Shown here: in pieces, positions 18,701 through 57,969 of the stretch
Position numbering within the stretch: position 1 is the stretch's first letter
Layout: each line of letters starts with the position of its first letter
IMG/VR virus record: IMGVR_UViG_3300045988_140605
Source of the DNA: a virus
Strand: one strand, 5' to 3'
DNA length: 60,617 nucleotides
Notes under the pieces: model-generated
Told to the model about the DNA's origin: nothing
The model's database searches: none
The model's input: the letters and a program-made list of their open reading frames with translations, nothing else
Made by a program: the position numbers and the translations under genes

Positions 18701-20215
18701 GGAAACGATACGGCGAATCTTGTCCATCTGCTCTTCGTTTTCCGTGAAAGCTTTTACTCGGTCAGTCAGTTCGCGGAAGCCCCTGGTCATGCTAAAAAGC
18801 TGCTCACTTGTCTTGGGTGGGAACACTTTCTGGAATTCGGTGCGGACGGCATTAACAACATTCTGGATAGCATACACGATGTTCCAGAAGCTCTGAATCA
18901 GCTCGTCGCGGCCGCCAAGATCCTTCCAGCCTTTCACAATTTCATTTCTTGCGGTAGCAGATTCATCGATGATCTTCCCGAAGAAATCGCTCATGCTGGT
19001 CAGAAGCGCTTTTGCTTCCTCGAAATCGCCGATGATATATTCCCATGTCTGCGTCCAGCCGCTCTGCGCCGCTTCCTTAAGCGTATCAAAAAGCTGCGTA
19101 AAGGTTTTCACCTTGGTGGCGGCCTCAGTCGCGTCCTTTGCCAACTGGAGAATCTCATCGGCTTCTTCTGACGTATAGCCTTGCGCGAGTAGCTCGCTCT
19201 TTTTCATCTCCATGGCCTTGAGCACGCCCTCTTCCATATTGGCAGACGTGTAGCCCATGTCTTTGGCGATTTGCTCGAAGTCCCAGGAGAACTGTTCGAG
19301 TGTTGCCGTCAGGATATCGCTTGTCAGCCAGCCTGTGGACAAGCTGTCGCGGAAAGAGCCTTCCTCTGCGATCACTTCGTCCACGGTGCGCTGGACTGTT
19401 TTCTTTACTTTTTTTCCAGCCTTATCCGTTTCCGTAACGGTGTATTCCACCGTTTTGCCCATTGCTTTAGCCGTGCGCTGAAGAGCCTTCTGAAACACTT
19501 CGCCGCCCATACCTGCATTGACAACGGAATTCCAGTCCATCAGCCTCACCGTGCCGGTTGAAATCGCTTGCGAAAGCTGATACATGCCACGGCTGGCCTG
19601 CTCGCTGGTCGAGCCAGATATGGCAGCCAGGTTTGCAATACCCTGAATGGATTGCACAGCTGTGTCCAATTCAACACCGGCAGCGGTAAATGTTCCGATA
19701 TTCCGGGTCATTTCCGTGAAATTGTAGATCGTCTTGTCTGCGTAATGATTCAACTGGTCAAGACGGTCGTTGACAATCGCAAGTCGCTCGGAATCGCTCA
19801 GGCCCTGCTTGGTCATCGCATCACGAGTGTTGGATAGGATGGTCTGAATTGCGTTGATTTGCGTCTCGTACTCCTGCATACCAGTCTGCACGGGATCGAT
19901 GGTCAGTGCTTTAATAAAATTCTGTACGGGAACGATCGCGTTCAGCGCTGCGTCGCCAATTCGGTTGTATACGTTCTGCACCAGGTTCCCCATGAAAGAG
20001 AACCTGTCGGCAACGGATTGTGCGGCGTCGGACAATCTGCTCAGGTCGATTTTACTTGCGGCCTTGTCGATCGCTTCGAGTCCCTTTGCCGATTTTTCTA
20101 AGTCAAGCCCCTTTTTCAGATCGTCAAGCGACTTAACGCTTTCCTGGATGCCATTCTCAAACTGTTTGTTGTCAAACTGCATCTCAACAACGCGCTTATC
20201 GACATTGTTGCTCAC
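12749..20215 (-). CDS. Tape measure protein, 2488 aa, with two internal repeat arrays
   Basis: It is the largest ORF and sits upstream of Dit. The GTG start overlaps the upstream stop (GTGA). The protein is helical and Ala/Gly-rich. Confidence 0.9.
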   Translation of the reverse strand: MSNNVDKRVVEMQFDNKQFENGIQESVKSLDDLKKGLDLEKSAKGLEAIDKAASKIDLSRLSDAAQSVADRFSFMGNLVQNVYNRIGDAALNAIVPVQNFIKALTIDPVQTGMQEYETQINAIQTILSNTRDAMTKQGLSDSERLAIVNDRLDQLNHYADKTIYNFTEMTRNIGTFTAAGVELDTAVQSIQGIANLAAISGSTSEQASRGMYQLSQAISTGTVRLMDWNSVVNAGMGGEVFQKALQRTAKAMGKTVEYTVTETDKAGKKVKKTVQRTVDEVIAEEGSFRDSLSTGWLTSDILTATLEQFSWDFEQIAKDMGYTSANMEEGVLKAMEMKKSELLAQGYTSEEADEILQLAKDATEAATKVKTFTQLFDTLKEAAQSGWTQTWEYIIGDFEEAKALLTSMSDFFGKIIDESATARNEIVKGWKDLGGRDELIQSFWNIVYAIQNVVNAVRTEFQKVFPPKTSEQLFSMTRGFRELTDRVKAFTENEEQMDKIRRIVSGMANGLDIIRQVIGGVWQVAKEVFSYVSPYAGDLIELIAKGADKITEFNQRLKETGGVQNVVEKVTNFIKKMVDAVKDFIRATEELFSNGPDGITEKIKDWFDRFSGIGEKISKFFDGNDILKSIKTFFSNIGESVENFVTNMDGADIAVILGALLGGGVLLKIRNFIKSLTDIKESICGGIEGISDGIVDTLGSFKSKKDITKTILNIAASLALIAGALYIVAKIDPDRLGDAVFTMGIMLTAITAFAFILSKIKLKNAAGLAAASTGLMLLGSAMLVFASVIERIGKLDGETLVKGIAGLGAVLLELTVFMALTRKAKMGLFKGAGLVLLATSLKIFADVVIKLGGMDTKTITKGIAGLGAVLLELAVFLGLTKKVKMGLFKGVGLILLATSLNLFANAVKKIGSLETGTIVKGIAGLGAVLLELAAFLALTKKANLGVFKGAGLILLAVSINMFADAIQKIGGMETDTIVKGIAGLGAVLLELGIFLALTKKANLGIFKGAGLILLAVSINMFANAIKKIGSLETGTIVKGIAGLGAVLLELAVFLALTKKAKLGVFKGTALILMAASISMFASTIEKIGSLDTGTIVKGLAGLGVVLLELAAFMSMVKKSNFGVFKGAGLILMAVSLNSFAETIAKIGKLKTKTIIKGVAGLGLVLLEIAAFMNIMNKTKITGITKSLVMLGVMALSLQVFVKALKHLDGVEMGQMLAFSTSFSVALLSLSASMMLISKVPVTAALAGIAKLALVAAAIVALMAVFGAAEQAWSVSSYINSFGDMTEAIGKAIGRFVGGLGAGVMQGLNLPQIGSDLSDFMTNIQPFLDGCKGVDESVKTGVGNLASAITAIGGAEIVSAISSWFVGDNPISQFSDDIGIIATALNNFAAGISGFTETDNSNLTNATNAAKGLAELVKAVPWEAPEWAKAVTGSKDVEGFADDAATLATALLNYATNISGFSATISETDVTNSTNAAKALVELQQALPAEGGWIQSLLGIKDLSTFGERVPGFATGMKAYAKEISGFSSTVTQTDIDNSTNAAKALIGLENSLSGEGGLLQDLIGIKDLTTFAGKVPGFASGMKAYAAEISGFSSSVTQTDIDNSTNAAKALIALEGSLSGEGGLLQNIMGVKDLTTFSAKIPGFATGMKAYAKEISGFSSTVSEADIMNSTNAAKGLVELQNALPSEGGWLDGIIGVKDLTSFAEKIPGFATGMKAYAAEISGFSSTVTESDVANSTNAAKALVELQNALPAEGGLLDRLLGIKDLSSFAENLPGFAAGMVAYAAEITGFSSSVADGDITNSTNAAKALVELQNALPTEGGILDGLLGIKDLSVFGERVPGFAAGMKAYATEISGFTASVSEADITNSTNAAKALIELQNALPTEGGMLDKLFGIKDLGTFAEKIPGFAKGMVAYATQISGFTSTVSDADVTNSNNAAKALIELQNALPAEGGTLDKLLGIKDLGTFAERIPGFAAGMVAYAAEISGFTTTVTQDDITNSTNAAMALAGLANSIPAEGGWVQTILGQQDLGTFGEKCAQLGAGLASFAANIGSVSTQETSNALEAMGLITQFTNGLSSEGGVFNAIGKFFGGQQDIVGLSEKMATVGTNLATFASQLSAADFSNTEQATQILTDMQTFIGTLETKGGVWADIGAFFGGSKDIVGLSSSMASFANNFSTFATGITGASQAATDFATVQTIVTAFTALADSIKEGNVDTGDIEYAAELMADSFVTTMAATISNGGDQVGAAAVALSSSGTTAAQETYLVWYRTGQNLSKGLSNGISSMAGSVRRAATNAAAGATRAIQITWSVHSPSRVGRDLGMNFDLGIAGGLDRYSRVVSQSAEGIGENAVDSAKTMLRGTDYSIFDFIDPNPTIRPVLDLSNVRSGVGMIGGMLNSDQVLSGGLFNGINFNKGVNALNFDGARIAGGINNKDVIAELQSLANRFDNLNEAVTNMKVVLDSGELVGATSRKMDNQLGELAMRRGRGN
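13655..16027 (-). repeat. In-frame 198-nt (66-aa) repeat array, about 12 copies, inside the tape measure
   Basis: The unit is NSTNAAKAL(V/I)ELQNALPxEGGxLDxLLGIKDLxxFxExxPGFAxGMxAYAxEISGFxxxV. Antisense ORF starts at 14481, 14679 and 15471 confirm the 198-nt period. Confidence 0.9.
16580..17824 (-). repeat. In-frame 177-nt (59-aa) hydrophobic repeat array, 7 copies, inside the tape measure
   Basis: The unit is TIVKGIAGLGAVLLELAxFLALTKKAxLGVFKGAGLILLAVSINMFAxAIxKIGSLET. The DNA offset is 177 nt (for example 17187 versus 17364). Confidence 0.9.
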
Positions 20216-22695: not shown

Positions 22696-23002
22696 TGTAA
22701 ACGCCCCCAATCGTCAAGATAAGACGGGGGCTCTGGACTTCCACATTTGTGACTTTCCAAAAAGCCCCCATCCATTTCACATAACGAATGGCAAAGAAGT
22801 GTTGATAGGCATACGGGTCGGCAACAATACTCAAGCTGTTATTCACAGAAATGTTATCGTTGATCGTTTCACCGGATTCGAGCCTTCTGTTTTTGCGGAG
22901 CACATCACCTGCATAGTTCCGCTCGGTGATGATTTCCTGAAAGATGCCAGGTCTCGTTTCCTTTGTTTCAGCATACCCGATAGGACCATAAAACTTTGCC
23001 AT
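22679..23002 (-). CDS. Conserved structural-module protein (neck / tail-completion position)
   Basis: The N-terminus is MAKFYGPIGYAETKETRPGIFQEIITERNYAGDV. It lies directly downstream of the capsid gene. Confidence 0.4.
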   Translation of the reverse strand: MAKFYGPIGYAETKETRPGIFQEIITERNYAGDVLRKNRRLESGETINDNISVNNSLSIVADPYAYQHFFAIRYVKWMGAFWKVTNVEVQSPRLILTIGGVYNGPTG

Positions 23003-23014
23003 TTTGACCTCTCA

Positions 23015-24910
23015 TCAGGTATTACTGCTATCGTCGGCCGCAACCACTGTCACGTCCTTCTCCAGCGCGATGGCGGAGAACGGACGGGTCAGAGCGCCGG
23101 AGCTGCGAGTCTCCAGCAGGCTGACTTCCTGGTTGAAGTTGATGTCAAAGTCGGTGAAGTGGGTAATCTCACCGCCCTTGGTGGCACCAAGGCTGTAGTC
23201 GGCAAAATTCACCATCAGACCCAGCAGTTCGAAGGTCTTCTCGGTCTGATTCACGGTGGCGGTACGGGTCTTGCCTGCAAACTGCTCAGCGGTGATAATT
23301 TCGTTCACGTTCAGCGCAGCCTTCAGCTCGTTGACGTTGTCGTAGATTCGACGGCCATTCAGATCGCGTGCCAGCAGCATCACATTCACCAGATGCGGCG
23401 TGCACAGGAAGTCCGGGTTGCCGGAACCCTTCCACTTTTCACGGGCATACAGCAGGCTCTGGATAACTGCCTCGGCATACACGTAATTCTCGCCAAAGTT
23501 GGCGGTGGAATTGGTGCCGGTCAGCTCGGTGCGCATCGCATTGATGTCCACGGTCTTGTGAATGCAGTACAGGTCATCATCCAGCCAGATCGGGCGCATC
23601 TTCGTCGGATCGATCGCGTTGTCGCCGCTGCGGCCGTCGCCGATGGTGATCTGGCGGGCCAGCTCCTCGTTCAGGTTCATGCGATCCAGTCCGTACATAT
23701 ACTGCACCGTGTCGAAATCGGTGATATCAACGATGTCGTCACGATCCAGCTTGGAGCGGATGTACACGGTAACGGGATCGGTGGTGCGGCTCAGCAGAGT
23801 GATCGTGCCAGCGTCAGTCTTCTGAGAGCCCTTGGTGTAGCCCTTGGCACGGCGAGCGGAAATGTCACGAACGTCGGCCTGGCGGGTGCGGATGCGGCTG
23901 ATGGGGCTCTTATGCACCCTGGTCAGCACCTTGCCGATCCAGCCCTGATCAGTGGTCAGCAGTTCCGGAGCACCGGGCTTCACGTCCTTGTATTCCGGGA
24001 ACAGCTGAGAGATGTTGGTGATGTTCGCAGCCGCGGCATGGGCCAGCTCGTCCTTCTTGTTTTCGGTCACATAGGCTTCCATAGCCGCCTTCAGAGAGCC
24101 GCCGCCGTAGGCTTTCGCCATCTCGATGATCTTCTCACCGTCGGCGTGGGACAGGAAGGCGTCCTTGTTTTCAGTTTCCTTGTCGAAGACATTGCGCTTC
24201 ATTTCGTTTTCCTCCTCTTCCATTTCGGAATTGTGTTTGACGTCGGAATCCTTATCGGATTCTTCAGCAGCGCCATCATCGGAATTGACGATGGTATCGA
24301 TGATATAGGCAACGGCATCCTTCTGCTTCTCGGTCAGCGTGTTGAGAATGTCCTGCATGGTTTCCTTATCATCTTCGGGTTTTTCGGGCGTGTGTTTCGC
24401 CTCGCCCTGCTTTTCAGCATTGTCATCGGCATGTTCAATTTCAGCGAACAATTCGATTTCCTCACCGGTGTAAAGAATGCCCTGTTCATGATCCACAGTC
24501 GTAGTGCCGTCGGCATGAACGACCACAGAATCAATGAACGCGCCAGGATTGGCGCCGGCATACACCAGGCTGACCTCGCGGATCATACCGTGCAGCACGG
24601 TTTTGGCCTGCTCCTTCAGCTGATTGGCATAGATGGAGAGGGCATTGATGTCACCATGAAGCACCAGCTTCCGGGCGTTCTTACCGTTCTCAGTATCATT
24701 GAAATAGCATTCAACACGCATACTGCCGTTCTGGCTGTGCAGAATGCCATATCCAAGAACGCTGTCAGGCGTAGCGTGATTATGGTTCCAGACAATCGGA
24801 ACCTTCGCGCCATCCTGATGAGCAAAAGCGTCCTTGGCGATCAGGCGACCATCGGAACAACGCATGTCCGCTTTTGTCGCCCAACCGGCAAAGTCATACT
24901 TTTTATCCAT
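23015..24910 (-). CDS. Prohead protease / acidic linker / HK97-fold major capsid protein fusion
   Basis: The N-terminus (VPIVWNHNHATPDSVLGYG...INALSIYA) is S78-protease-like. An E/D-rich linker follows. The C-terminal ~330 aa are capsid-like. ATG 24910 overlaps the portal stop by 8 nt. Confidence 0.7.
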   Translation of the reverse strand: MDKKYDFAGWATKADMRCSDGRLIAKDAFAHQDGAKVPIVWNHNHATPDSVLGYGILHSQNGSMRVECYFNDTENGKNARKLVLHGDINALSIYANQLKEQAKTVLHGMIREVSLVYAGANPGAFIDSVVVHADGTTTVDHEQGILYTGEEIELFAEIEHADDNAEKQGEAKHTPEKPEDDKETMQDILNTLTEKQKDAVAYIIDTIVNSDDGAAEESDKDSDVKHNSEMEEEENEMKRNVFDKETENKDAFLSHADGEKIIEMAKAYGGGSLKAAMEAYVTENKKDELAHAAAANITNISQLFPEYKDVKPGAPELLTTDQGWIGKVLTRVHKSPISRIRTRQADVRDISARRAKGYTKGSQKTDAGTITLLSRTTDPVTVYIRSKLDRDDIVDITDFDTVQYMYGLDRMNLNEELARQITIGDGRSGDNAIDPTKMRPIWLDDDLYCIHKTVDINAMRTELTGTNSTANFGENYVYAEAVIQSLLYAREKWKGSGNPDFLCTPHLVNVMLLARDLNGRRIYDNVNELKAALNVNEIITAEQFAGKTRTATVNQTEKTFELLGLMVNFADYSLGATKGGEITHFTDFDINFNQEVSLLETRSSGALTRPFSAIALEKDVTVVAADDSSNT

Positions 24911-26159
24911 TTTGACCTGTCTCCTCATTATTGTTGGTTTCATCCGCTCCAGCACTGGTCGGGATCAGCTGCCTTGCATTAGAGGAATCGCTCAGATTCT
25001 TGTTCCGCAGCACATCCGCGTTCGGATCACTGCTCGGCTTCATCCCGATCACCTGGCGGATCTCGTTTGAGGTCATAATCTCATTGCGGGTAAACTTATC
25101 GGCAATTTCTGCAATGTCGTTTACCGGCACCAGCTTAAACGGGTCGCGGAAATAGGCGATCGTCTGCTTCTGGGAACGAGCGGTAGGCGTAAGAAACTTG
25201 CGCTTCATTTCATCAGCAATAGCAGACAGAATAGGCTCAATGGTGCGGTTATAGTAATTGAGCATTGTCTTTTCGTCGGCAGTTCCATCCAGTATGGATT
25301 GTGTGATGCCGAGCTGACTGAAGAACATGGAGGTCAAGTATTCAATCTGTTTCATCAGATTGTTTTCAACAGGGCGGTTAAGCTGTGTAATGCGCTCCGT
25401 TCCGTCCGTATACGCAATGCCGTATTTACCCTCGGATAGCTGCTTCTCGATATTCTTGCGGCGTTTTTCCGCCTGCTCACGCCTGGCCTCGGTCTTGATG
25501 ATATAGGGGAGCTGAATGATCAGATCGAGCTTTCCGCTGCTAGTCTGTTCGTCCACCACATCCAAAAGGGTCAGTTTTCGAACCAAGCGCTGATAAATCG
25601 AGTTCGGCTCATTCATCACCGAGTACATCGGATTCTCAATAAGCGGAACAGTCGATTTAGGGATGATAATCTGCTGGCGCTGACCTTCCTGTTCGTTATA
25701 GACCTCCACCTTCACATAGCGCGGATACCATTCCAGAATCTTACCGGTACGCAGCGTGTAGACCTTAAAATTTCCGGAATCCTCAGGCTCGTCATCCGCG
25801 TCAGTAGGGACAGCCGCAACACATCCTTCATCGAGCATGCTCGCCACGAGATCCTGGATAAAGGCTCGACCCGTCTGATCCAGGTTGGCCTCAACGGATA
25901 AGCAGTTATTAAGCCCGGAATCGATCGTCTCTTTGTAACGATCATTCTCATCCAGACGAATATGCTTCAGATTCACAGCGGCCACGTCCATCGCAATGCG
26001 GTTATACACCGCAGTAACGATAGAGCGCTCATTACCGCGTGTATAGCGCATCCGGTCAGGCCGATACCCGTAGGAAGGACCGATGTTCCAATTTACCTGC
26101 GTGGGGTCTTTGTTTTTGAAGATATTCCAGGCATGTTTGAGCCTGTCCATCAAAGCCAT
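24903..26159 (-). CDS. Portal protein
   Basis: The 418-aa protein lies between the terminase region and the capsid and has a strong RBS (TAGGAGGAAAA). Confidence 0.7.
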   Translation of the reverse strand: MALMDRLKHAWNIFKNKDPTQVNWNIGPSYGYRPDRMRYTRGNERSIVTAVYNRIAMDVAAVNLKHIRLDENDRYKETIDSGLNNCLSVEANLDQTGRAFIQDLVASMLDEGCVAAVPTDADDEPEDSGNFKVYTLRTGKILEWYPRYVKVEVYNEQEGQRQQIIIPKSTVPLIENPMYSVMNEPNSIYQRLVRKLTLLDVVDEQTSSGKLDLIIQLPYIIKTEARREQAEKRRKNIEKQLSEGKYGIAYTDGTERITQLNRPVENNLMKQIEYLTSMFFSQLGITQSILDGTADEKTMLNYYNRTIEPILSAIADEMKRKFLTPTARSQKQTIAYFRDPFKLVPVNDIAEIADKFTRNEIMTSNEIRQVIGMKPSSDPNADVLRNKNLSDSSNARQLIPTSAGADETNNNEETGQNG

Positions 26160-26451: not shown

Positions 26452-26934
26452 TCAATCCTCCTCCAACCGCCGATCAATATACGCAGTTACAAACCGCGAA
26501 CTCGATTCCGGCCCATCTTTCTGCCAGACGGTTCTGAACAGTCTTTGCGCCGTAACGCCAAGCGACATGGGAATGCTGTACTTTTCTCGGGTCTTTCCGA
26601 TTGATACGGCATCGCACTTCTTTGAAAGATCGAAACCCTTCTCAATATCGCGAAACAGTCTGTCAGCATCCGTTGTTTTATATCCAACGCTGAAAAACTC
26701 GTCGGCGTGATCGGTTCCGGCCTTCAGGCACCATTCGGTGAACTTGTTCTGCTTGACCGTGAACCCTTTCGAGCTTTGGTAAACGCCGTCTACTATTTTA
26801 ACAGCTTCTTCAGCATTTGCAACCGCAGAATTAGTTACATGCCCAAGTTGTTCAGGCGTTCGGCGCACACCCCATTTCATTCCCTTCACGCCGTGATGAA
26901 TAAGAACGCCGCCCAAATAGCTTTCGTAAATCAT
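26452..26934 (-). CDS. HHGVKGMKWGVRR-motif protein with DUF6883-like C-terminal domain (candidate toxin)
   Basis: The C-terminus KFTEWCLK...DEFFSVGY...KYSIPMSL...FRTVWQKD...RFVTAYI fits the DUF6883 pattern. The N-terminal motif is shared with 28698-29063. Confidence 0.5.
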   Translation of the reverse strand: MIYESYLGGVLIHHGVKGMKWGVRRTPEQLGHVTNSAVANAEEAVKIVDGVYQSSKGFTVKQNKFTEWCLKAGTDHADEFFSVGYKTTDADRLFRDIEKGFDLSKKCDAVSIGKTREKYSIPMSLGVTAQRLFRTVWQKDGPESSSRFVTAYIDRRLEED

Positions 26935-28697: not shown

Positions 28698-29063
28698 TTA
28701 GGTTTTGTTAAACCAGCCAGAAATGGTATTCCAGTTATTTCGGAGGGTAATTGCAGTGGAAGAGACAGCCGCGACAGTACCTGCAACCTTGATAGAGGTA
28801 TTCAGAATCTGCCTGCCCCGCGCAACGCGGGTCGGGTTCAGCTTGGAATACTGCTGCTCCATGTTCAAGCGGTTCAGACGGCTGCGAAGCTCAGCATCGC
28901 TCATCCTCTTTACACTCTTAGAATCATGAGCTTTCTTGTAATCTTCATGGGAATCATCCGTCTTGGTCTGCTTGCTCTTGGGGCTTTGACCAAGCTGCTC
29001 GGGCGTATGGCGAACGCCCCATTTCATTCCCTTTATGCCATGATGCCAAATCTCTTCGGCCAT
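28698..29063 (-). CDS. HHGIKGMKWGVRH-motif protein (function unknown)
   Basis: ATG 29063 follows AAAGGAGAGA. The sequence is MAEEIWHHGIKGMKWGVRHTPEQLGQ...MSDAELRSRLNRLNMEQQY, with a hydrophobic C-terminus. Confidence 0.55.
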   Translation of the reverse strand: MAEEIWHHGIKGMKWGVRHTPEQLGQSPKSKQTKTDDSHEDYKKAHDSKSVKRMSDAELRSRLNRLNMEQQYSKLNPTRVARGRQILNTSIKVAGTVAAVSSTAITLRNNWNTISGWFNKT

Positions 29064-30222: not shown

Positions 30223-30774
30223 CTAATCCTTTCTGCGATACGCCGCAAGAGCGCGCTGGTAGTCCTCGGTATCGGCATAACCGCAAGAATGAAATTCCGG
30301 ACAGAAACCACGATAGATACACTCCGGCACCATCACGGAACTGAGCACCGGATCGACCTGCGCAATCCGCTCTTTGACCTCCTGCCAGGCTGCCCGAGTC
30401 TCAGGAGATGCCTGACTGCAAAGACGCCGGCGGCTGATAAAGATCAGCGCTTGAGCATTGGCTTCGCACTCATGCTGAACCGGAGTGTCCTGCGAACTCT
30501 TGTCACGGTTCACGCCGGTTCGATCGGAACGCTGAGTAGACACCCAATGCTCAATACCGAATTTATGGCGAACGAAATGAACCGATACCCAGCTCTTCAA
30601 ATTTTCCCAGCGCCAGGAGAATCGGATTCTCCGAATCGGACTGTGCTCGGCAAGGAGGATCGTCTTCTTCCAACCCGTAGTCGGATAAGAGCCGCTCCCA
30701 TCTTTGCTGATGGTTGTCCGCGCAGAACGTTTTACATTCGCCCAGTTATCAATGTATTCGACCCACTTAATCAT
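30223..30774 (-). CDS. Divergent ThyX-like (flavin-dependent thymidylate synthase family) protein
   Basis: AEHSPIRRIRFSW...VHFVRHKFGIEHWVSTQRSDR and NAQALIFISRRRLC parallel the ThyX core, but the RHR triad is degenerate. ATG 30774 follows AGGAGG and overlaps the HNH stop. Confidence 0.4.
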   Translation of the reverse strand: MIKWVEYIDNWANVKRSARTTISKDGSGSYPTTGWKKTILLAEHSPIRRIRFSWRWENLKSWVSVHFVRHKFGIEHWVSTQRSDRTGVNRDKSSQDTPVQHECEANAQALIFISRRRLCSQASPETRAAWQEVKERIAQVDPVLSSVMVPECIYRGFCPEFHSCGYADTEDYQRALAAYRRKD

Positions 30775-31229
30775 CACATCCTCCTTTCCGAATGCTTCCA
30801 TGGGCATGTATCAAAAGGTGTCCTCTCTACCGGTTCCATCACCAATAAAGATGAATCGCCATAGTGGATAGCGTTATGCGTATTATGCGTCGTGCAGATC
30901 AGAAACTCAGGATTGGTCAGATATTCGGTCGCCTCTCTGATGTCGCGAACTTCAATCGGATTCATGTGGTGGATGTAAATTCTCCCATGAATATCGTATC
31001 CATCGCAAGCCAGATCACGGCCGAGATCTCTGGTAATCACATGATCCTTGATTTCTCCCCACTCACCGGAGTGGTAGAATTTCTGATTCAAATAACGCTC
31101 AAATCCAAACGTCTCCTTGCCCACCTGTCCATTCAGTTGCAGGTACTTGAAGCGATTCAAAAATGTGGGAAGCGTAATCAGCTCCGAATATGTTCTAATA
31201 CTCATCAACAAATTCATCCTCATCATCAT
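30774..31229 (-). CDS. HNH endonuclease (packaging-associated)
   Basis: The HNH motif is IYIHHMNPI...HNTHNAIH. The gene lies next to the terminase genes. The start is ambiguous (31229 to 31205). Confidence 0.7.
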   Translation of the reverse strand: MMMRMNLLMSIRTYSELITLPTFLNRFKYLQLNGQVGKETFGFERYLNQKFYHSGEWGEIKDHVITRDLGRDLACDGYDIHGRIYIHHMNPIEVRDIREATEYLTNPEFLICTTHNTHNAIHYGDSSLLVMEPVERTPFDTCPWKHSERRM

Positions 31230-31548: not shown

Positions 31549-31573
31549 GACATAACCCTCCGTTTCAAAGACT

Positions 31574-31710
31574 ATTGCGGTGCTAAAAAGAACATACGAG
31601 GATGGTTCACCCATTGTCGAAAGGAGAAAAATGAAGGAAACCCAAAGAACAGATGGAGGACTGCCATGAAGAAGCTCCCAAACCCCGTATGTTCGTTTTA
31701 GCACCGCAAT
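31574..31710. repeat. 25-nt inverted repeat (24/25) enclosing 87 nt, in the leader of the packaging operon
   Basis: attgcggtgctaaaaagaacatacg (31574-31598) is the reverse complement, apart from one mismatch, of cgtatgttcgttttagcaccgcaat (31686-31710). Confidence 0.85.
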
Positions 31711-31823
31711 AACAACCAGCCACAGAAGGCAAAACACCCCCAAAAAACTTCCACCGGAGAAAAATCAAGGAGCTCGTCGATGCAGGGAGGGGATGTGTTT
31801 TTGAGACCCCCTCCCTATGTCTT

Positions 31824-32093
31824 TTAGTTTGCGGTTGCCGTCTGCTTTCGGTTGTTTTTATATATTTTTCTGTAGATGTTCATGAAATCATACTTAATGA
31901 TCTCATCAATCGCTGCCTCGATGGCCCTACTGTACTCCTCATCTGAAAATTCGTCGCTGGTCTTCGCGATTCGACCCAGGTAGTCACATGTGTTATACCC
32001 TTTTTCGGTGTCGAAGTGGAACCAGTTATCGAACTGAGTGAACGGATTGTAGGGATTATCGAAGGTTGTCAGCATGCAAGCCTCGTTTGCCAT
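31824..32093 (-). CDS. Conserved small phage protein
   Basis: ATG 32093 follows AAAGGAG. The sequence is FDNPYNPFTQFDNWFHFDTEKGYNTCDYLGRIA. Confidence 0.5.
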   Translation of the reverse strand: MANEACMLTTFDNPYNPFTQFDNWFHFDTEKGYNTCDYLGRIAKTSDEFSDEEYSRAIEAAIDEIIKYDFMNIYRKIYKNNRKQTATAN

Positions 32094-32107
32094 GTCGTCC
32101 ACTCCTT

Positions 32108-35100
32108 TCAATTACTATATTTCGACACTGTCGAAGCTGAAATTCCAAGCGCGCTCGCGATTTCGGAGTTCGTATAGCCAGAAGCGCGCATCGCTTTGAT
32201 TCTCGCCTGCTTTCCGCTCGAAAGCGTAGTCGTTGCACGCGGCGTTGCGTAAGACCGCACCTGATCGATGTCCGCAAACCGCAGAATCTGCGATAGGGTG
32301 GACTCAGAAAACGCTCCAGCCTGGATAGCCTGCCAACCGCGTTCCGTAATTTCGATTGGATGCCGCTGTGCTCCGTATCGAGTACGCGCACGGCTCAGCG
32401 CAAGCTGCCCCTGCTTCTTGACTTCTTTCTGTGTCATGTCGGGGTTGGCCCGCTTCATGGCCTTCACTTCGCTGTTGGCCGCCAGCTGGGCCTGCCGCTC
32501 GCGAGGAGCGTTCTTCAAGGCAATGTTCAGCTGATGCATCATGCGATCGACTTCATCGCGATATGTTTCCTTGGCCGTCGCGCTGTACTTAATCCGCCCA
32601 GCAGTCACCATTTCCTTGCGGGCCTGGTTCGCTAAAGCCTTCATACGGTTCGCATAGGTGGCGTATGCTTCCTCCTGGGGGGTCCCAGAGGATAGCTTCT
32701 GGGCGTCCTTCACCTCTGCCATTTGGGTCGAGTCCTGCGTCCGCAGTTTCTTCTTCCCATGCTTGTCGGTGTATTCTTCCCGGACCTCCTTATACTGAAG
32801 CTCCCCGGTACGGGGATCAATTTTCGGCGAACCCTTGCGCTTCAACACAGCTTCCGGCGATTTGGCGCGGCTGATTAACGTGGATGCCCCGTAATGGATC
32901 TCTCCATCCTCATCGGGGTGGGCCTGATACTTCTTTTTCAGGGCAGGGATTCCGTTGTCAATCTCGCTCGCCTTCCAGTCCAGCTTGTGCTTCTCCGCAT
33001 CAATGACCACCATGGAGTGGCGCACAGCGCGGGCCAGTTCATCCTGACTGGCGCCTTTTAGCGTCATGTCCGTAATCAGGTTGGATACCTTGCCCATCTC
33101 CATCTGGGTAGCACTCTTTGTCATCCGCTTAAACTCATGGCCATCGCGATAGTAGTGTTCCTTGCCGTCGGCGTCGGTTTCCACTCTCGAATAGCCATAG
33201 CTCATCTTGGGGTCGAATCCTTCCAAACCTTTAAGCGGTGGTGTCGAAGTGATCTTCACCTTGCTTCCGCTCGAATTGCACGGAATGACCATCACCGTAT
33301 CGCCGTCAAAGTCAGCGCCCGACAGCCGAGCGGCGACGTTGGCATTGATGCCGATCGCGTCCTGCGCATCTGGTCCCAGAATCCTGCGTCCATCCGGCTG
33401 CTTGTTGTTCACCGTCAGAATCGGAATCTCAAAGGTTCCACCATGGGGATACCGAATCAGGGCAACTGTCTCGCCGTCGTGATAATTGGGGGCGTAAACT
33501 TCATCGTCCTTCATCGTTGCGATAGGCAGGATTACCTGATACTTTTGCCTCGGCAGGGCAGCGGCCTGCAAATGCACAGCCGCCGAATCGCAGTCATTGG
33601 CGAAGGTTTCCAGCAGCTGCTTCTTTACCGTGGGATTGGTAAGCGAACAAATCTCATCAAACTCGGCCTGCTTGTCCGCAGCGGCCAGGTTCAGCTGTTT
33701 GTTAATCAGCTGCATACTCTGCTTGCTCAGGAACTGGCTCGGCAACGCATCTGCCCATTCGCCCCAATCGCCTTCGGCTCTCGTTTTGTTGATGAGCCCC
33801 AGCTGTGCTACTCCGTTCTCATCCACATAGTGGTACTGGCCGCCTTCTTCCTTGATAAGCGCGCCGAATGGGTTGTTCGGATCATCGGTCTTGGCTTTCT
33901 TCAGCACATCCTGACCGGGCGTTTTGTTGGTATTAAATATCACGTCTACGCCGTCAGGCATGTCGTCGCTGTAGAAGGCCATTCCCTTTATGTACTTGTC
34001 TCCGTCCACCAGAATACGCACCTGCGCATAGTGGCTGTCGCCCAGATCCAGATCATCTACGCCTCTGCGAATCTCGATGGTGCCGTCTTTCTCGATGCCT
34101 GTGTGCCCATCAGGCGCAACGTCATCTCGATAGCGGATCATCAAACGGTCGGAATCCATAGAGGCCGGGTATTCAAACCCTTTCTCAAAGCGTTCCTCGC
34201 CGTTTTCGTCCACACGCATCTTGTAATCGGTGATGGTATGGACGTTCTCAAAGTCGTAAATATCCTTATGCTCGGTGCCGGGCGGGCAGAGAACCTTGAG
34301 ATTCGTCTGCTTGCCGGGATTTGTAACCTGCGGAACGCCTCCGCCATACACTGCATAGCCCTCATCCTGAAGAATTTGCAGCGCCTGATTGAGTTTTTCC
34401 CGGCTGATGCCAAGCTCCCGCTCCACACCAGTGCCAACATCGATCAGACCTTTTTCTTTGATCTGCTGACGCAGAAAATCGGCGGTATTCTGAGCGGCGT
34501 TGGTTCTCGCAGCACTGCGCTCGTTGAGCAGCGAACGCAAAGTTGACTCGTTGATGCCCATCTCCCGGGCAACCTCGGCCTGACTTTTCCCGTCAGCCAG
34601 CATCGAGCGGGCGCGGGCAATCTGGTCGCTCCTTCGCTGATTGATCGCATTGGAATAATGCGTTCTCAGCTGCGTTGTGTTCTCCAGTCCCACGGCCTTG
34701 GCAATTTCGGCTTCGCTCATGCCCTGCTTGCGCAGATCCTGAACACGGCTGATGAAATCCCCGCTGTGTTGGTAGGGATCCTCTCCGGAACCCCATGGGT
34801 AGCGCCCTGAACGCCGGGGCATGCCATAATGATACAACTCCGTCTTGGGATTGGTTTTTTCCCAAATATCCCGGTAGGCTCTGTGAAGCACTTCGCTGGC
34901 GCTGATCTGCCCATGGCGAAGTCCCTCAGAATACGCTACATCCCAAATTTCTCCGGGAACAAGCTCAATTTCGATGTCTTCCAGCTCGTCAAACACCTGC
35001 ATATGACGCAGTTCGTCATAAGTGTCTTCCGACATTTCACTGTTGATATAATCCCAATTCAGACTGCCGTCGCTGTGGAACATATCTTCCAGCACGCCCA

Positions 35101-35215
35101 TCGTCGCAAGTTCATCGATTCTGTCGGGCCGACGCTGAGAATACAGTTCGAAAACAGTATCAACGACTTTATATTCAAGCCCGTTCGGAGCCGTATAACG
35201 TCTCACGTCGTCCAT
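32108..35215 (-). CDS. Large multidomain protein with RNAP beta-prime / YonO / RdRP-like double-psi beta-barrel motif and several HTH modules
   Basis: GETVALIRYPHGGTFEIPILTV...VAARLSGADFDGDTVMVIP (DFDGD at 33299-33313) parallels beta-prime ...LNRAPTLHR...YNADFDGDQMAVHVP and QDE-1 ...SGGDYDGD. A downstream MGKVSNLITD follows. HTH-like segments include GMSEAEIAKAVGL, GKSQAEVAREMGINESTLRSLL and GYTNSEIASALGISASTVSKY. Confidence 0.6.
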   Translation of the reverse strand: MDDVRRYTAPNGLEYKVVDTVFELYSQRRPDRIDELATMGVLEDMFHSDGSLNWDYINSEMSEDTYDELRHMQVFDELEDIEIELVPGEIWDVAYSEGLRHGQISASEVLHRAYRDIWEKTNPKTELYHYGMPRRSGRYPWGSGEDPYQHSGDFISRVQDLRKQGMSEAEIAKAVGLENTTQLRTHYSNAINQRRSDQIARARSMLADGKSQAEVAREMGINESTLRSLLNERSAARTNAAQNTADFLRQQIKEKGLIDVGTGVERELGISREKLNQALQILQDEGYAVYGGGVPQVTNPGKQTNLKVLCPPGTEHKDIYDFENVHTITDYKMRVDENGEERFEKGFEYPASMDSDRLMIRYRDDVAPDGHTGIEKDGTIEIRRGVDDLDLGDSHYAQVRILVDGDKYIKGMAFYSDDMPDGVDVIFNTNKTPGQDVLKKAKTDDPNNPFGALIKEEGGQYHYVDENGVAQLGLINKTRAEGDWGEWADALPSQFLSKQSMQLINKQLNLAAADKQAEFDEICSLTNPTVKKQLLETFANDCDSAAVHLQAAALPRQKYQVILPIATMKDDEVYAPNYHDGETVALIRYPHGGTFEIPILTVNNKQPDGRRILGPDAQDAIGINANVAARLSGADFDGDTVMVIPCNSSGSKVKITSTPPLKGLEGFDPKMSYGYSRVETDADGKEHYYRDGHEFKRMTKSATQMEMGKVSNLITDMTLKGASQDELARAVRHSMVVIDAEKHKLDWKASEIDNGIPALKKKYQAHPDEDGEIHYGASTLISRAKSPEAVLKRKGSPKIDPRTGELQYKEVREEYTDKHGKKKLRTQDSTQMAEVKDAQKLSSGTPQEEAYATYANRMKALANQARKEMVTAGRIKYSATAKETYRDEVDRMMHQLNIALKNAPRERQAQLAANSEVKAMKRANPDMTQKEVKKQGQLALSRARTRYGAQRHPIEITERGWQAIQAGAFSESTLSQILRFADIDQVRSYATPRATTTLSSGKQARIKAMRASGYTNSEIASALGISASTVSKYSN

Positions 35216-35217: not shown

Positions 35218-35775
35218 TCAGCCCTCCTCTTCTTTGATTCGCTGAATCACCTTGTCAAAGGTGATGATCTTATCGATGATGGGTAAGATCTCGTCTGCTT
35301 CGGGGTTGTGAAATATCACTTCGTCGTTCTGGTAAAGCCGAAGCTCCATCTGAATATCGCCGGGCTTCACCTTGTATTCCAGGCAGAACAGTGCGGCGTA
35401 TACCATCAGCTGCTCCATGTGCGCCAGCACCTTGCCAGTTTTCAGATCATGAATGCGTAGCATCCCGTTTCTGAAGGCGATAGCGTCCGCGGTGCCGTAG
35501 CAATTTTCAGAATAGTAGAGCACCTGCTCGCTCTGCATCTTGTAGCCAATGGCGTCGTTCACAAACATGTTCAGCGTCTTCTGACTTTTGGGCAGTTTCT
35601 GTCCAAGAGTGATGCAGCGGCTGGCGAATTCATGCAGTTCGGTTCCCTTCAGAGTCGCCATAAAACTCTTGTAGCTGTCGGCCAGCTTATCGGTATCATA
35701 ATTGATCCAATGATACTTGCTTGCGCTCAGGAACGCATGGCTTCCCTCAAGGTCTGAATGCCTGTTCCAGTTCAT
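35218..35775 (-). CDS. PD-(D/E)xK nuclease (Cas4/RecB-like exonuclease family)
   Basis: GTADAIAF...LRIHDLKTGK gives the D...D-x-K motif arrangement. Confidence 0.55.
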   Translation of the reverse strand: MNWNRHSDLEGSHAFLSASKYHWINYDTDKLADSYKSFMATLKGTELHEFASRCITLGQKLPKSQKTLNMFVNDAIGYKMQSEQVLYYSENCYGTADAIAFRNGMLRIHDLKTGKVLAHMEQLMVYAALFCLEYKVKPGDIQMELRLYQNDEVIFHNPEADEILPIIDKIITFDKVIQRIKEEEG

Positions 35776-36049
35776 GCAGAACTTCCTCCTTGTTCTCGGG
35801 AAATATAAATCTCGAAAAGGACATGTCGTTCATCCGTTTCACGTAATACTTCTGATTGGGCTGTCGATGCGCGTTCGCGTTTGCTTTGCACTCCAGCGTC
35901 GCCCAATGCTTTCCCCAGAGAACCAGAAGGTCCGGAATGCCCTGAATATGTCCAGAGTCCAGCTTCGTGACGATGCAGCCCTTGAACAGCGTCTTCAGTT
36001 CCCGAATCAACGCTCTCTGAAAGTCGCGTTCCAATTTGCTCGCTTTCAC
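35747..36049 (-). CDS. VRR-NUC domain nuclease
   Basis: The pattern is ERDFQRALIRELK...GIPDLLVLWGKHWATLECK. The start is GTG, after GAAGGGAG. Confidence 0.65.
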   Translation of the reverse strand: MKASKLERDFQRALIRELKTLFKGCIVTKLDSGHIQGIPDLLVLWGKHWATLECKANANAHRQPNQKYYVKRMNDMSFSRFIFPENKEEVLHELEQAFRP

Positions 36050-36134: not shown

Positions 36135-36166
36135 CAAAAGAAAAGCCTGCGAATTCGCTTCGCAGG
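36135..36166 (-). terminator. Strong rho-independent terminator (a second hairpin follows at 36076-36108)
   Basis: The minus strand reads CCTGCGAA-GCGAA-TTCGCAGG, then CTTTTCTTTTG. It is followed by GAAGAGAG...CTCTCTTC and TTTTATG. Confidence 0.7.
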
Positions 36167-36180
36167 CGATGGGGAAGGAA

Positions 36181-44856: not shown

Positions 44857-47800
44857 TTACACTCCGTCATGCGCATCTCCTTCCGGCGGCACATCGTATG
44901 GGTCATCCGACTGAAACCACTCGAAATCGCCATACTTGGAAATGGTCTCGATGGCGTCGTCCACCAGCTTGTCGTAATAGCTTCGGTCAATATCAGCTTC
45001 GCGATGAAGCGCCGCAACCATTTCGCTTTCCATCCAACGGAAGCCCTTGCTGCCCGTTGCCGCGGCGTATTTACCGCCCGCTTCCCGCAGCAGCACGCCG
45101 CCTCCGCTTCCGGCATTTACCGGCGTGAATTCACCCACGCGCCCCACAAAGCGGTAGTCGTGTCCAGCGGCAATCTGCTCATCCAGCGTGCGCAAATATC
45201 TTTCGTCCTGAATCGGCAGTCCCTCTTCGCCAGAAGCCTTATAGTCGATCCAGTCCTCCAGATTCATGTTCAGCTCCTTCAGCTTCTTTTTGAGCATTTC
45301 TTCTTCATTGCTCACATCGGGCAGTGCTTCGTTCATGTCCAGATACAGCGCACCGCTTACCGAGAAGGTCTCACACATGTCCTTAAATTCAAGCGGTTCA
45401 CGGCTGAACAGGGTCTTGAACACATAGGGCACTGCAAACTGTTTGCCTGTGGCCGTCCATTTGCCATTGTCCTTTCCGCCTTTATATCTGGCAATGTACA
45501 CGGCGTCGTTCACCAGGCACATCTTGTCGTAAGTAGCCTCGTGCTCAAAGGTGTAGCCATACTTCTTGCCGTAATCCATTACAAAAGCGATGATATCCGG
45601 ATCTGCGTCTGGAATCTTGATGGAGTCCGTCTTGATGTGCGCCACGGTAAAGCCCCGTTTTTGCACCTCGTGCTTCAGGTTTACCATGAACAGCGCACCG
45701 CGTTTGGCTACGATGTTGTCGCGGTTCCTCGGGTCTCGGAAGGCGTTCTCGAAAGCTGCGCTAGTCAAGCCGTATACAGAATTGATGGCTGTCTTTAAAG
45801 CATTCGCCAGCTGCTTCGACGTCATTTCGCCGCCAATGACCTTCTGCACGTAGGGAGCCAGCTTGCCGTCCAGAATATGATTTACCTCGTCCCATGCCTC
45901 GTGCTTGATGCTCACGCGGCCGTCCACGATTTCCTTAAAGCGGCGGGTGAACGTGGGGCCAAACAGGCATTCCGCAATCACGCTGTGCGGGTGCATGGAT
46001 GCAATATCCAGCAGCGCCACGTTTCCGTACATTCCCGGCTCGGCATAAACGTATCCGCCTTCGCCAACTTCTTCGCCCTGATAGATGCTTACATAGCCGC
46101 GCTTACTCTGACCGGGCATGGGATTTCCATCCTCGTCTGCCCATTCGAAGGCTGACGCTTTGTCGCCGGGTCCGAAGTAATATCCGGGAAAGTAAGGGAG
46201 TAAGCTGTCTTCCTCGCCGTGGAGTTGCGACATCATTTCCGGGCAGGCGTCCTTGAGGAATTTCAGCACTTCCTGTTTCAGCTCGTGCACCGGCTGGCTC
46301 AGATCACGGTAGTTGAATTCTGCCTGCGGTCTGCGCACCCGGTCAAATATGATTCGCGTGGTCAGGCTGTTGGTGGTGTCGTTCACCGTCATTCCTGCGA
46401 TGTCTGCCAGAATCTGCCGCGCCGTCCAGTCTGCCGAAAGGTGATTAAATACCGCTTCCGTGGCAATCACGTCGTTGTCGCAGTATTCGGCTACCTTGGG
46501 CCACATTTCTTCCGGCACAGGCTTGTCCCATGGCAATCCAAGCTCCTGATGATGAATGCCAAGCTCAATTTCAAATTTCTTCAGGCTCTTCTTATTGCTG
46601 GCTGATGCGAAATCGTACACATCCGTGTAGCTGACGTTGTACGCTTCCCCAAAGAAAGCGTCGCTGCGCTTGCCTCCGGATATAATCCGCTGACTCAGGT
46701 TGTAGAGCTGCATGTTACTGTAGCCCATCAGTCGTCCCCAGAGAATATGATTATCATACCGGCGGCAGTTGAAGCCGATCAGGCGGTAACGCATTAGCTC
46801 TTCCACCTCGGCAGGCGTGGGGTTAATCATCCGAACCACTTTTTTACTCTCACCCTGGAGTTTCCAGTTGACGAGAAAGAGGTTGGGAAACACCTCCACA
46901 TCGTAAAACACGATCGGTGCTTCGCTTGGGGCTTCCGCCTCCGCTTCCTTGTCTTTGGAGCGGAACTGCATCTTTCCTACCAGCTTCAGGCAATAGTCGG
47001 CCTGATGGGTGCTTCGCGCTGCAAAGGCGTATACGGCGTTTCGCATGTCGCTAACGTCGTAGCTCAGCTTTTCATCGTTATACGCATCCTCCAAAATCTT
47101 ATAGATAAAGTCAATGCTCGGCTTGGTGCCGGGATGAATTTCCTTGTCCAGATTCCTTTTAATCAGCGCTCGCAATCCCTTTTCGCTTTGCACAGAATCA
47201 AAGTTTACCGTTTTCTTCGCCTCCTTCAGCGGCAGTCCATGGGTAAGGGTAGCGATAGGTAAGTCGTTACACAGAGAGAGTTTTCTGCGCAGGCTGGAAT
47301 TACCGTTGAACACCTTCACCTCAATGTGGTCGGCATAGATGCGGCTTAGCTGCGTCACGTCGCCCTGGTAAATATAATGCAGATGAATGGCCTTACCGCT
47401 CTTGCTCACCTCCGCATACGTTGGCGGCCATTTGGACGCCTCCTCCAGATTGCGCTCAAAGCTCTTTTCACCGTCCGCACCCAAAATATCAAAATCGATT
47501 ACGATCAGGTTCAGCGGCGTTTTCACATAATGCGGCTTTGAGGTGTCCAGATCGGCAAGGGTTGTCTGCACGTTCTCCCACTTCCGTGAAGGCGTTCCAT
47601 TGTCATTGGCATACTGCGCCGAACAGGAAGCATATTCTCTGTCGAAGCGGCTGGGCTGCGCTTTCAAATCGAGCGCCGGTTTAGGCGTATCATCGGTTTT
47701 CTCCTGTTTTTCTTCTTCAAATTTCTCCTTTCGAAACCCCCGATAATAGCTTCTCACCCGCGTACCATCGGAGAGAATTTCTCGCTCACTGTACTCCCGG

Positions 47801-53589: not shown

Positions 53590-53750
53590 TTATCATTTCT
53601 CCTTTCATCGCACGCCCTGCGCTTCGCTGGTGTGCGCTCTTCGCATTTTTGATTGTTGTTTCTTACCGCGTCGCAAACTGTGTTTGCTCCTTGAATCGCA
53701 AAAAGAAAAAGAGAAGACGCCTTGTTATCAGCGCCTGCTCTTTATCAGGT

Positions 53751-54035
53751 TTACTCGTCGATCTCGGGAATCTCGTCCAATTCCACGTCGCTCAGATCGA
53801 TCTCTTCCGCCTCAGCCGTATTGACCTTCTTGGTCGCCTTCTTCTGCTGGATCGTGCGCTTAACCTTGTGAACAACCGGAACCACGACGTACTTGGTCAG
53901 CAGAGCTGCTCCAACCACGCCCAGTCCGATGATGCCCACGGTCTTGATCACGCTTCCATTACTGGAAGTTGCTTCCGTCGTCAGGTCCTCAATCGCCTCA
54001 GTGTTGATGATCTCGTTCTTTTCGATGTTTTCCAT
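53751..54035 (-). CDS. Single-pass membrane protein with acidic termini
   Basis: The TM segment is VGIIGLGVVGAALLTKYVVVPVV. It has a strong RBS. Confidence 0.5.
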   Translation of the reverse strand: MENIEKNEIINTEAIEDLTTEATSSNGSVIKTVGIIGLGVVGAALLTKYVVVPVVHKVKRTIQQKKATKKVNTAEAEEIDLSDVELDEIPEIDE

Positions 54036-54131
54036 TGTCGTTTTCTCCTTTCGATTTTAGGGTTTGTCCCCTCATAAAGCCCCTTGCAAATTTCGCGGAA
54101 AATAGGCTCACAGCACCAACCAATTCAGCAG

Positions 54132-54923: not shown

Positions 54924-55248
54924 TTTTCTTCCTTTCAATAGTCCGTAAATACCGCAGAACTTCGCCGCACTCATACTCCATCTTCGCAGCGAATCTGTGC
55001 GTCTCGAAATGGTCGTCGTCCGAATCTCCGAGAATATAATCCAATTCGGAATACGCCTGGCTGACCACCTGAATCGGATCGTCCTCAGACTCACGGATTC
55101 TCCGAATCAGCTCGCTCAGAAGATACCGACCGTACACACAGGTCTGAAAATAGGCGTTCCTCTTTGGAAATATCACGGAACTCGAATTGCACCGATATAC
55201 ATTTCGCCGATATCTTCGTAGCAGGGATATCGCTTCTTCCTGCGTCAT
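54904..55248 (-). CDS. Hypothetical protein
   Basis: The 114-aa ORF has an AGGAGGAGG region upstream. Confidence 0.45.
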   Translation of the reverse strand: MTQEEAISLLRRYRRNVYRCNSSSVIFPKRNAYFQTCVYGRYLLSELIRRIRESEDDPIQVVSQAYSELDYILGDSDDDHFETHRFAAKMEYECGEVLRYLRTIERKKNEDAKN

Positions 55249-55300
55249 GCCCGATCAATCCTCCTCCTTTTCCAACCCCTTCGGGCTCCATCTTCTCGGC

Positions 55301-55329
55301 AAAAGAAAAGAGCCCTTGCGATCGGGCTC
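55301..55329 (-). terminator. Rho-independent terminator (GAGCCC-N8-GGGCTC)
   Basis: The minus strand reads GAGCCC-GATCGCAA-GGGCTC, then TTTTCTTTTG. It lies right after the 55339 stop. Confidence 0.6.
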
Positions 55330-55338
55330 CGTTCTTTT

Positions 55339-55494: not shown

Positions 55495-55539
55495 GGCTTT
55501 TGCCTCCTTTCCATAATAGACACAGTTTTTTTCGCGGAA

Positions 55540-56361: not shown

Positions 56362-56365
56362 GAAA

Positions 56366-57902: not shown

Positions 57903-57969
57903 TGCTATTCTCCTTTTCATATTGTTTAGTGTCCGCTTCTTCATAATGCGCCTTGTAAAATTCGCGGAT

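Follow-up and report, generated by a model that had tools for sequence, protein, structure and literature searches.

How does an RNA polymerase that consists of a single chain find its promoters? Single-subunit RNA polymerases (RNAPs) with two barrels are believed to be similar to the enzyme from which all cellular RNA polymerases descend; to our knowledge just a few of them have been studied (QDE-1, YonO, the crAss gp66 and the P23-45 enzymes), and promoter finding by these minimal two-barrel enzymes is an open question, explicitly so for YonO. The question is raised here by one gene of the IMG/VR virus record IMGVR_UViG_3300045988_140605, a stretch of 60,617 nucleotides (nt) that we analyzed at full length and call the window. 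An open reading frame (ORF) of 1035 amino acids (aa) was called on its minus strand at 32108-35215, and an earlier note on this DNA had proposed that it encodes a single-subunit RNAP resembling YonO or RNA-dependent RNA polymerases (RdRPs), with an ADFDGD motif and helix-turn-helix (HTH) modules. We find that the gene very probably encodes a single-chain two-barrel-type RNA polymerase joined to DNA-binding modules. The gene and its parts are as follows.

32108 to 35215, minus strand: HTH-fused gene resembling two-barrel RNA polymerases (ORF; PHROG 4291; AlphaFold model; fold matches to QDE-1 and RDR2)
34853 to 35215, minus strand: N-terminal acidic helical extension, aa 1-121, present only in the closest relatives
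34778 to 34837, minus strand: N-terminal motif LYHYGMPRRSGRYPWGSGED, aa 127-146, predicted to be disordered (conservation; predicted local distance difference test, pLDDT, below 50)
34331 to 34756, minus strand: three N-terminal HTH or winged-helix modules, aa 154-295 (Pfam; helix and strand pattern in the model)
33920 to 34144, minus strand: putative upstream barrel region, beta-subunit-like (double-psi beta-barrel DPBB-B), with D377, R400 and K410-G411 (conservation)
33278 to 33544, minus strand: predicted catalytic barrel, beta-prime-like (DPBB-A), with R588-Y-P590 and the loop G-A-D635-F-D637-G-D639 (conservation; fold)
32987 to 33118, minus strand: two long helices behind the catalytic barrel, aa 700-743, with MGKVSNLITDM (model; conservation)
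32114 to 32218, minus strand: C-terminal HTH, aa 1000-1034, sigma-70 region 4-like or LuxR-like (Pfam)

Three N-terminal HTH modules and one C-terminal module enclose a minimal catalytic core of about aa 300-860. The sequence features quoted in the earlier note are all present in the ORF: residues 581-645 were recovered verbatim, R-Y-P occupies aa 588-590, GADFDGD occupies aa 633-639 (DFDGD, aa 635-639, at nt 33299-33313) with HTH modules on both sides, and the downstream block MGKVSNLITD lies at aa 707-716.

Fold and active-site residues of the core

Searches of PDB chains with phmmer and with a profile of 93 aligned homologues returned only HTH proteins, apart from a marginal match in which the DFDGD region aligned with a beta-prime chain of a phage (E=1.6). 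Sequence searches alone cannot place the protein; its predicted fold does. A full-length AlphaFold2 model, computed from the 93-sequence alignment (homologues 40-98% identical to the query), had a mean pLDDT of 81.3. When it was compared with the PDB using Foldseek, QDE-1 of Neurospora (6.7e-7) and plant RDR2 were the significant matches at the top, and after them came many catalytic large-subunit chains of the Rpb1 or beta-prime type, from Pol IV, Pol II and bacterial enzymes. A model of the core only (aa 297-860, 564 columns) reached a pLDDT of 88.2 and a predicted TM-score (pTM) of 0.78 and gave 23 PDB matches at E<=1e-3, all 23 of which are single-subunit two-barrel RNAPs. Fourteen of the matching chains are QDE-1, with up to 0.44 in TMq and about 525-550 of the 564 columns aligned; RDR2 was matched at 7e-8 to 3e-4 and, from Thermus phages, P74-26 gp62 at 1.5e-7 (TMq 0.37, TMt 0.36) and P23-45 gp96 at 2.3e-4. 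The next tier contained gp66 of phi14:2, a phage of the crAss-like group (0.017), and then multisubunit beta-prime and Rpb1 chains. In a library of predicted viral structures, the top matches were phage proteins named 'RNA dependent RNA polymerase', with about 10% identity. Structure prediction followed by Foldseek, the check that the earlier note had suggested, therefore recovered a two-barrel fold with QDE-1 as the best match (4.7e-10). The models give this protein the fold of a two-barrel RNA polymerase, with HTH modules on either end, and the fold places it in a clade with QDE-1, the RDRs of plants and several single-subunit RNAPs of phages.

To describe the active site we relied on the eight residues that Ruprich-Robert and Thuriaux (2010) found to be common to all two-barrel polymerases, which in QDE-1 are D709, R738, K743, R962, P964, D1007, D1009 and D1011; in the multisubunit enzyme, Rpb1 R446/P448 and Rpb2 K979, K987 and D837 are signature residues. 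The window protein has candidates for all eight in matching order (D377, R400, K410, R588, P590, D635, D637 and D639) and at similar spacing, with 47 aa between R-x-P and DxDxD as against 45 aa in QDE-1; in the superfamily, R-x-P stands about 35-45 residues ahead of DxDxD. Across 150 sequences, each representing one cluster at 50% identity and 44-65% identical to the query, seven of the eight residues are kept in every one, and D377 in 148; G411 is likewise found in 150 of 150 and D424 in 148, and M707, G708, N712, L713, D716, D739, K742 and H743 are invariant. R400, K410-G411, R588, P590 and the three aspartates D635, D637 and D639 are also invariant in all 93 aligned homologues. Because the signature residues are invariant in both sets (93/93 and 150/150), DFDGD is beyond chance coincidence, and because the active site is invariant across a large and diverse family, the sequences indicate that the protein is almost certainly an active nucleotide polymerase.

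In the model, R400 and K410 are located on a beta-hairpin (strands 396-403 and 407-416) of the upstream beta-rich region. The order and conservation of D377, R400 and K410 suggest that they are active-site positions of the second barrel, and the invariant R400 and K410 would supply the conserved Lys/Arg that the earlier note had recommended looking for. Two long helices, aa 700-719 and 724-743, may correspond to a 'bridge helix', judging from their position. Furthermore, two homologues that are 67-70% identical to the window protein (P0099 and P0120) pass the Pfam RdRP model PF05183, with 25.2 and 25.1 bits against a gathering score of 23.8; the match starts at GADFDGD and extends through the helices with MGxxSNLITD. 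The sequence parallels to the beta-prime barrel and to eukaryotic RdRPs including QDE-1, on which the first proposal was built, are thus real. What might have spoken against that proposal turned out otherwise: the predicted fold has two barrels, DFDGD maps within it, and the acidic triad is retained in the homologues.

The comparison with YonO held in part. The two-barrel superfamily stands, with QDE-1 and RDR2 as the nearest folds; a sequence relation to YonO did not emerge, the hhalign comparison of the 93-sequence profile with YonO giving a probability of 0.4%, in a weak test to which YonO contributed a single sequence. No YonO structure was found in the PDB.

Terminal modules and family

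HTH families are the sole Pfam finds in the window protein, and the modules make up less than 20% of it. Significant matches cover about aa 204-232 (Sigma70_r4_2, HTH_28 and HTH_23) and aa 1003-1033 (HTH_23 at 3.7e-11, HTH_38 at 7e-10 and GerE at 5.3e-9, with a second Sigma70_r4_2 stretch); weaker ones lie at about aa 160-178 (HTH_68) and 264-289 (MarR_2 and HTH_Crp_2). These matches, three of them N-terminal and one C-terminal, support the earlier count of at least three HTH-like segments.

Ahead of the HTH modules lies a strictly conserved motif, L-x-H-Y-G-x-x-R-x-S-G-R-Y-P-W-G-S-G, in which H129, G131, S136, G137 and R138 are invariant and which is unstructured in the AlphaFold model. In nearly all homologues it forms the start of the protein. 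The window protein and its close relatives P0001, P0002 and P0004 alone carry a further extension of about 120 aa, and the remaining homologues begin 0-30 residues ahead of HYG. The extension is helical and acidic, with a pLDDT of about 85 over aa 20-120; no Pfam family matched it (aa 1-121).

Two origins for these N-terminal parts were considered and rejected. The HYG...WGSG motif bears a visual likeness to Pfam DUF7211, and six variants of it gave no match to that family at E<=10. Likewise, the extension is unrelated to the DUF7211 gene found in the equivalent place in the related locus L007 (BLASTP E=2.5) and is not that gene in fused form. DUF7211 itself occurs elsewhere in the window: two minus-strand ORFs that flank TerL, 26452-26934 and 28698-29063, start with HHG(V/I)KGMKWGVR, the 25-residue DUF7211 (39.6 and 33.4 bits), and have in common a 59-nt DNA repeat of 81% identity. 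DUF7211 genes also flank TerL in L006 and L007; L008 has one upstream of TerL, where the locus ends. The copy just upstream of the polymerase gene in L007 is the third in that locus.

The protein belongs to a large family. It matches PHROG 4291, 'RNA-dependent RNA polymerase', with E=0 and 1244 bits (aa 123-1033 against profile positions 8-904 of 909), and in a tblastn search 249 phage records proved to contain a full-length homologue, the phages being those of Arthrobacter, Gordonia, Streptomyces, Lactococcus, Curtobacterium, Microbacterium, Rhodococcus and Faecalibacterium. Grouped at 90% identity, the family amounts to at least 8000 clusters; at 50% identity, with E<=1e-30, the number is 1206. 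Most homologue records carry the annotation 'HTH DNA-binding domain protein', and some 'RNA-dependent RNA polymerase' or 'putative RNA polymerase'; in RefSeq, homologues bear the name 'RNA-dependent RNA polymerase'. Orf75 of Lactococcus phage 1706 is 37% identical over 993 aa, and Ruprich-Robert and Thuriaux (2010) had made that phage the type of one of five 'YonO-like' families. Koert et al. (2021, bioRxiv 10.1101/842583) described the same family across a supercluster of actinophages and in phages of Lactococcus and Faecalibacterium, reported an HHpred match to PF05183, HTH domains at both ends and a DxDGD loop, and stated that it 'could potentially have RNA polymerase activity'. The idea that an HTH-fused version was undescribed was therefore wrong, given PHROG 4291, the RefSeq labels and these two papers: the family has already been predicted computationally, and the window protein is a further member with an extra N-terminal domain.

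Gene neighborhood and proposed role

Bases 1-55 of the window are identical to bases 60563-60617, an assembly overlap which shows that the phage genome is complete and closes into a circle of about 60,562 bp. The phage, a temperate siphovirus of the same type as Faecalibacterium phage FP_oengus, carries an integrase at 135-1451 and has nearly all genes on the minus strand. In descending coordinates, the gene order is a helicase/primase/DNA polymerase fusion, a helicase, NrdD/NrdG, dCMP deaminase, MazG and a terminator; then the endonuclease, the exonuclease, the polymerase ORF, a 95-aa ORF and a non-coding gap of about 275 nt; below the gap phrog_4259, an HNH endonuclease, a connector-like virion protein, a DUF7211 protein, TerL, the second DUF7211 protein and the portal; and beyond the portal the head protease, the tail terminator and the major tail protein, a tape measure of 2488 aa, tail proteins, a diversity-generating retroelement (DGR), endolysin and the integrase. 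The elements next to the polymerase gene are the following.

36145 to 36167, minus strand: terminator-like hairpin closing the nucleotide-metabolism genes, with a 9-bp stem that has 6 G-C pairs, followed by the T-run TTTTCTTTTG
35747 to 36049, minus strand: VRR-Nuc-type endonuclease, first gene of the unit (phrog_93 at 2.1e-14)
35218 to 35775, minus strand: exonuclease, the conserved upstream neighbor (phrog_3953 at 2.4e-81)
31824 to 32111, minus strand: 95-aa partner ORF directly 3' of the polymerase gene (phrog_4303 at 2.3e-36)
31783 to 31817, minus strand: 12-bp G/C hairpin just behind the partner ORF, at the start of the gap (conserved; centroid structure)

The hairpin at 36167-36145 and the PHROG matches bear out the location first described, after a terminator and two nucleases and upstream of the packaging and structural genes. 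The exonuclease stop is separated by 2 nt from the ATG of the polymerase gene, which is preceded by the ribosome-binding site GAGGAGG. The counterpart of the endonuclease in Arthrobacter phage Correa is annotated 'VRR-Nuc domain protein', and the exonuclease is in the equivalent position in FP_oengus, Correa and phage 1706. The partner ORF is 48% identical to Correa gp96 (E=2e-27) and 40% identical to orf76 of phage 1706 (E=2e-20), a conservation on a par with that of the polymerase, and it adjoins the polymerase gene in every case (FP_oengus, P162, L006, L007, L008, Correa and phage 1706); because the two are always adjacent, they form a module. The neighborhood of endonuclease, exonuclease, polymerase and small partner is conserved among the relatives compared.

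The non-coding gap itself (31549-31823) contains sequence blocks that are conserved in relatives, even in FP_oengus. The G/C hairpin at its start is conserved in L006, L007, L008 and FP_oengus and has no T-tract after it. The physical genome end of the actinophages falls at the equivalent place, and the gap could be a cos or packaging site, a terminator or a promoter. At 44857-49017 on the minus strand, the phage also encodes a 1386-aa primase-DNA polymerase fusion (phrog_4210, E=0), the counterpart of gp55 of phage 1706, which Kazlauskas et al. (2016) described as a fusion of a superfamily 3 helicase, an archaeo-eukaryotic primase (AEP) and PolB.

Based on these observations we consider it moderately probable that the protein is a non-virion, DNA-dependent two-barrel RNAP that transcribes phage genes at DNA sites chosen by its HTH modules. 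The polymerase would be made mid-infection from the four-gene unit of endonuclease, exonuclease, polymerase and small partner; it would transcribe phage genes, most plausibly the downstream packaging, structural and lysis genes; and its own HTH modules, possibly aided by the partner protein, would select the DNA sites. We infer the DNA template, the target genes and the recognition of promoters by the HTHs alike, and the position of the gene makes a late-gene role plausible. We favor this reading because DNA serves as a template for the characterized members of the clade (YonO, gp66 and the P23-45 enzymes depend on DNA, and QDE-1 accepts DNA as well as RNA), because the presence of four HTH modules speaks for an enzyme that recognizes double-stranded DNA, because the gene lies at the boundary between DNA-metabolism and packaging-structural genes, a position reminiscent of yonO just ahead of the SPbeta late operon, and because the primase-polymerase fusion already supplies priming. 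A priming role for the protein was judged unnecessary, as the phage has this fusion of its own.

A number of results weigh against the proposed role or the assignment beneath it. Among 22 intergenic regions there was no recurrent phage-specific promoter motif, only terminator T-tracts and strings resembling ribosome-binding sites. A scan for sigma-70-type promoters stayed at background level. The TM-scores are modest (at most 0.44), and the fold match leans on the Foldseek E-values and on the matches being exclusively two-barrel RNAPs. The 93-sequence profile reaches no RNAP significantly among PDB chains, and the core of the window protein reached no Pfam polymerase model, with no match to PF05183 even at E<=10. 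D377, R400 and K410 were assigned to active-site positions of the second barrel by order and conservation. Among solved structures, the nearest relatives bear annotations as RNA-dependent enzymes, and the searchable literature yielded no biochemical, proteomic or transcriptomic study of any family member.

The annotation of those relatives leads to a different job for the polymerase, either non-transcriptional or RNA-templated: it could make double-stranded or regulatory RNA, like QDE-1 and the RDRs, or synthesize primers or R-loops that serve, together with the adjacent nucleases, in recombination-dependent replication or end processing. The nearest solved folds, QDE-1 and the RDRs, are RNA-dependent enzymes, the databases label the family accordingly, the linkage of endonuclease, exonuclease and polymerase is invariant across phyla, and RNA-mediated regulation was raised by Ruprich-Robert and Thuriaux (2010). 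However, the name RdRP stems from homology only, YonO and gp66, which are phage members of the broad clade, are DNA-dependent, the four HTH modules point to double-stranded DNA, and an AEP primase fused to a DNA polymerase is already in the phage; we regard this explanation as unlikely. Still less probable, in our judgment, is an enzyme that is packaged in the virion and injected with the DNA to transcribe early genes, like the N4 virion RNAP, phi14:2 gp66 and P23-45 gp96, with the N-terminal motif as a signal for capsid or portal targeting. The fold resembles P23-45 gp96 (2.3e-4) and more weakly gp66 (0.017), the unstructured motif at the extreme N-terminus is strictly conserved, the two small proteins flanking TerL have the visually similar N-terminal motif DUF7211, a few homologues carry the JGI label 'structural protein', and in actinophages the gene is at the right genome end. 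Yet two nucleases belong to the unit of the gene, a conserved gap without coding sequence lies between the gene and the structural genes, the N-terminal motif gives no score against DUF7211 even at E<=10, and the record of phage 1706 places 'structural protein' on orf62 and orf71, not on orf75. Moreover, known virion RNAPs are much larger or fused to virion proteins, and this gene is neither inside nor fused to a virion module.

That the protein is a DNA-binding regulator with multiple HTHs, whose barrels are no longer catalytic, would agree with most GenBank records ('helix-turn-helix DNA binding domain protein') and with the fact that only HTH families reach Pfam significance in it. Conservation of the active-site residues across the 150 representatives is unexpected for a dead enzyme, and the HTHs form only the small part of the chain given above; we find this account scarcely credible. 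A bolder version of the transcribing, DNA-dependent enzyme that we prefer is a 'holoenzyme in one chain', in which the core, the sigma-region-4-like HTHs in cis, the partner and the N-terminal motif would together carry out promoter-specific transcription of double-stranded DNA without a host factor. We offer it tentatively, as possible and rather doubtful.

Other features of the genome and the place of the family

A complete diversity-generating retroelement occupies 3495-7176 on the minus strand and consists of the following parts.

3495 to 4604, minus strand: reverse transcriptase (phrog_1423, 5.9e-78)
4681 to 4803, minus strand: template repeat
4840 to 5307, minus strand: Avd (phrog_3206)
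5916 to 6038, minus strand: variable repeat, within roughly the final 40 codons of its target ORF, 5905-7176

At each of the 13 positions where the template and variable repeats differ, the template copy has an A in its coding strand. One copy of an 83-nt direct repeat (5768-5850) lies beside the DGR; the other (53609-53691), with 76% identity and about 48 kb away, is in a mixed-strand region. From 53700 to 60350 this region contains small genes on both strands without PHROG matches, six copies of a hairpin-like element of 22-40 nt (GCAAAAAGGAAGAGGCCTTGTA...) and two paralogous phrog_2152 genes (54132-55094 and 55540-56379), and it is probably the lysogeny or early control region. The tape measure gene (12749-20215, minus strand) has two internal tandem arrays, one of about 9 copies of a 198-nt unit (14159-16014) and one of 6 copies of a 177-nt unit (16713-17897). 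A 727-aa plus-strand ORF at 22799-24982 was rejected as a gene: it has no family match and is a shadow of the head maturation protease gene (23015-24955, minus strand; phrog_3270, 5.9e-192), an artefact of G+C-rich coding sequence. Between the HNH and connector-like genes, a 194-aa ORF (30223-30807, minus strand) without a PHROG match has a match to ThyX (PF02511) that stays under the threshold (E=6.8e-4; 19.9 bits, cut-off 24.8), an odd location for a gene resembling thymidylate synthase.

Among characterized two-barrel enzymes, QDE-1 and plant RDR2 are the best structural matches (E from 4.7e-10 to 1e-4), at 9-15% sequence identity to the window protein; unlike it they are eukaryotic enzymes of RNA silencing without HTH modules, and they are able to copy RNA. 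YonO of SPbeta is, like the predicted protein, the single-chain two-barrel RNAP of a temperate siphovirus, and yonO lies just upstream of the late operon that YonO transcribes; YonO has no annotated HTH modules. The enzymes P23-45 gp64 and P74-26 gp62 are single-subunit two-barrel RNAPs of about 600 aa that are not part of the virion and transcribe phage genes. They differ in serving early and middle genes, in lacking fused HTH modules and in forming a branch of the similarity dendrogram apart from QDE-1 and gp66. Phi14:2 gp66 has the two-barrel single-subunit fold and belongs to a QDE-1-like clade, although the match to it is weak (E=0.017); it is a chain of 2166 residues in its PDB entry, is packaged in the virion and serves early genes. 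The nearest relatives are orf75 of phage 1706, gp55 of FP_oengus and the actinophage 'HTH DNA-binding' proteins, members of the same family with 37-52% identity over about 900 residues. These proteins share the HTH-core-HTH layout, the HYG...WGSG motif, the upstream nucleases and the small partner ORF, and compared with them the window protein and its three near relatives have an extra in front of the motif, the helical, acidic domain of about 120 aa.

The window thus adds no new principle and contributes a gut-phage member of the family with an extra N-terminal domain. In most of the approximately 250 phage records, the label 'HTH DNA-binding protein' hides a probable polymerase. The fusion of core and HTH modules is abundant in cultured phages of Arthrobacter, Gordonia, Streptomyces, Lactococcus and Faecalibacterium, and the family is a good experimental entry to the promoter question. 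If the single chain does act as a holoenzyme, the family, with about 1200 clusters at 50% identity in phages of Actinobacteria and Firmicutes, would be a third class of promoter-specific phage RNA polymerases and a tractable model for how two-barrel enzymes acquired promoter specificity.

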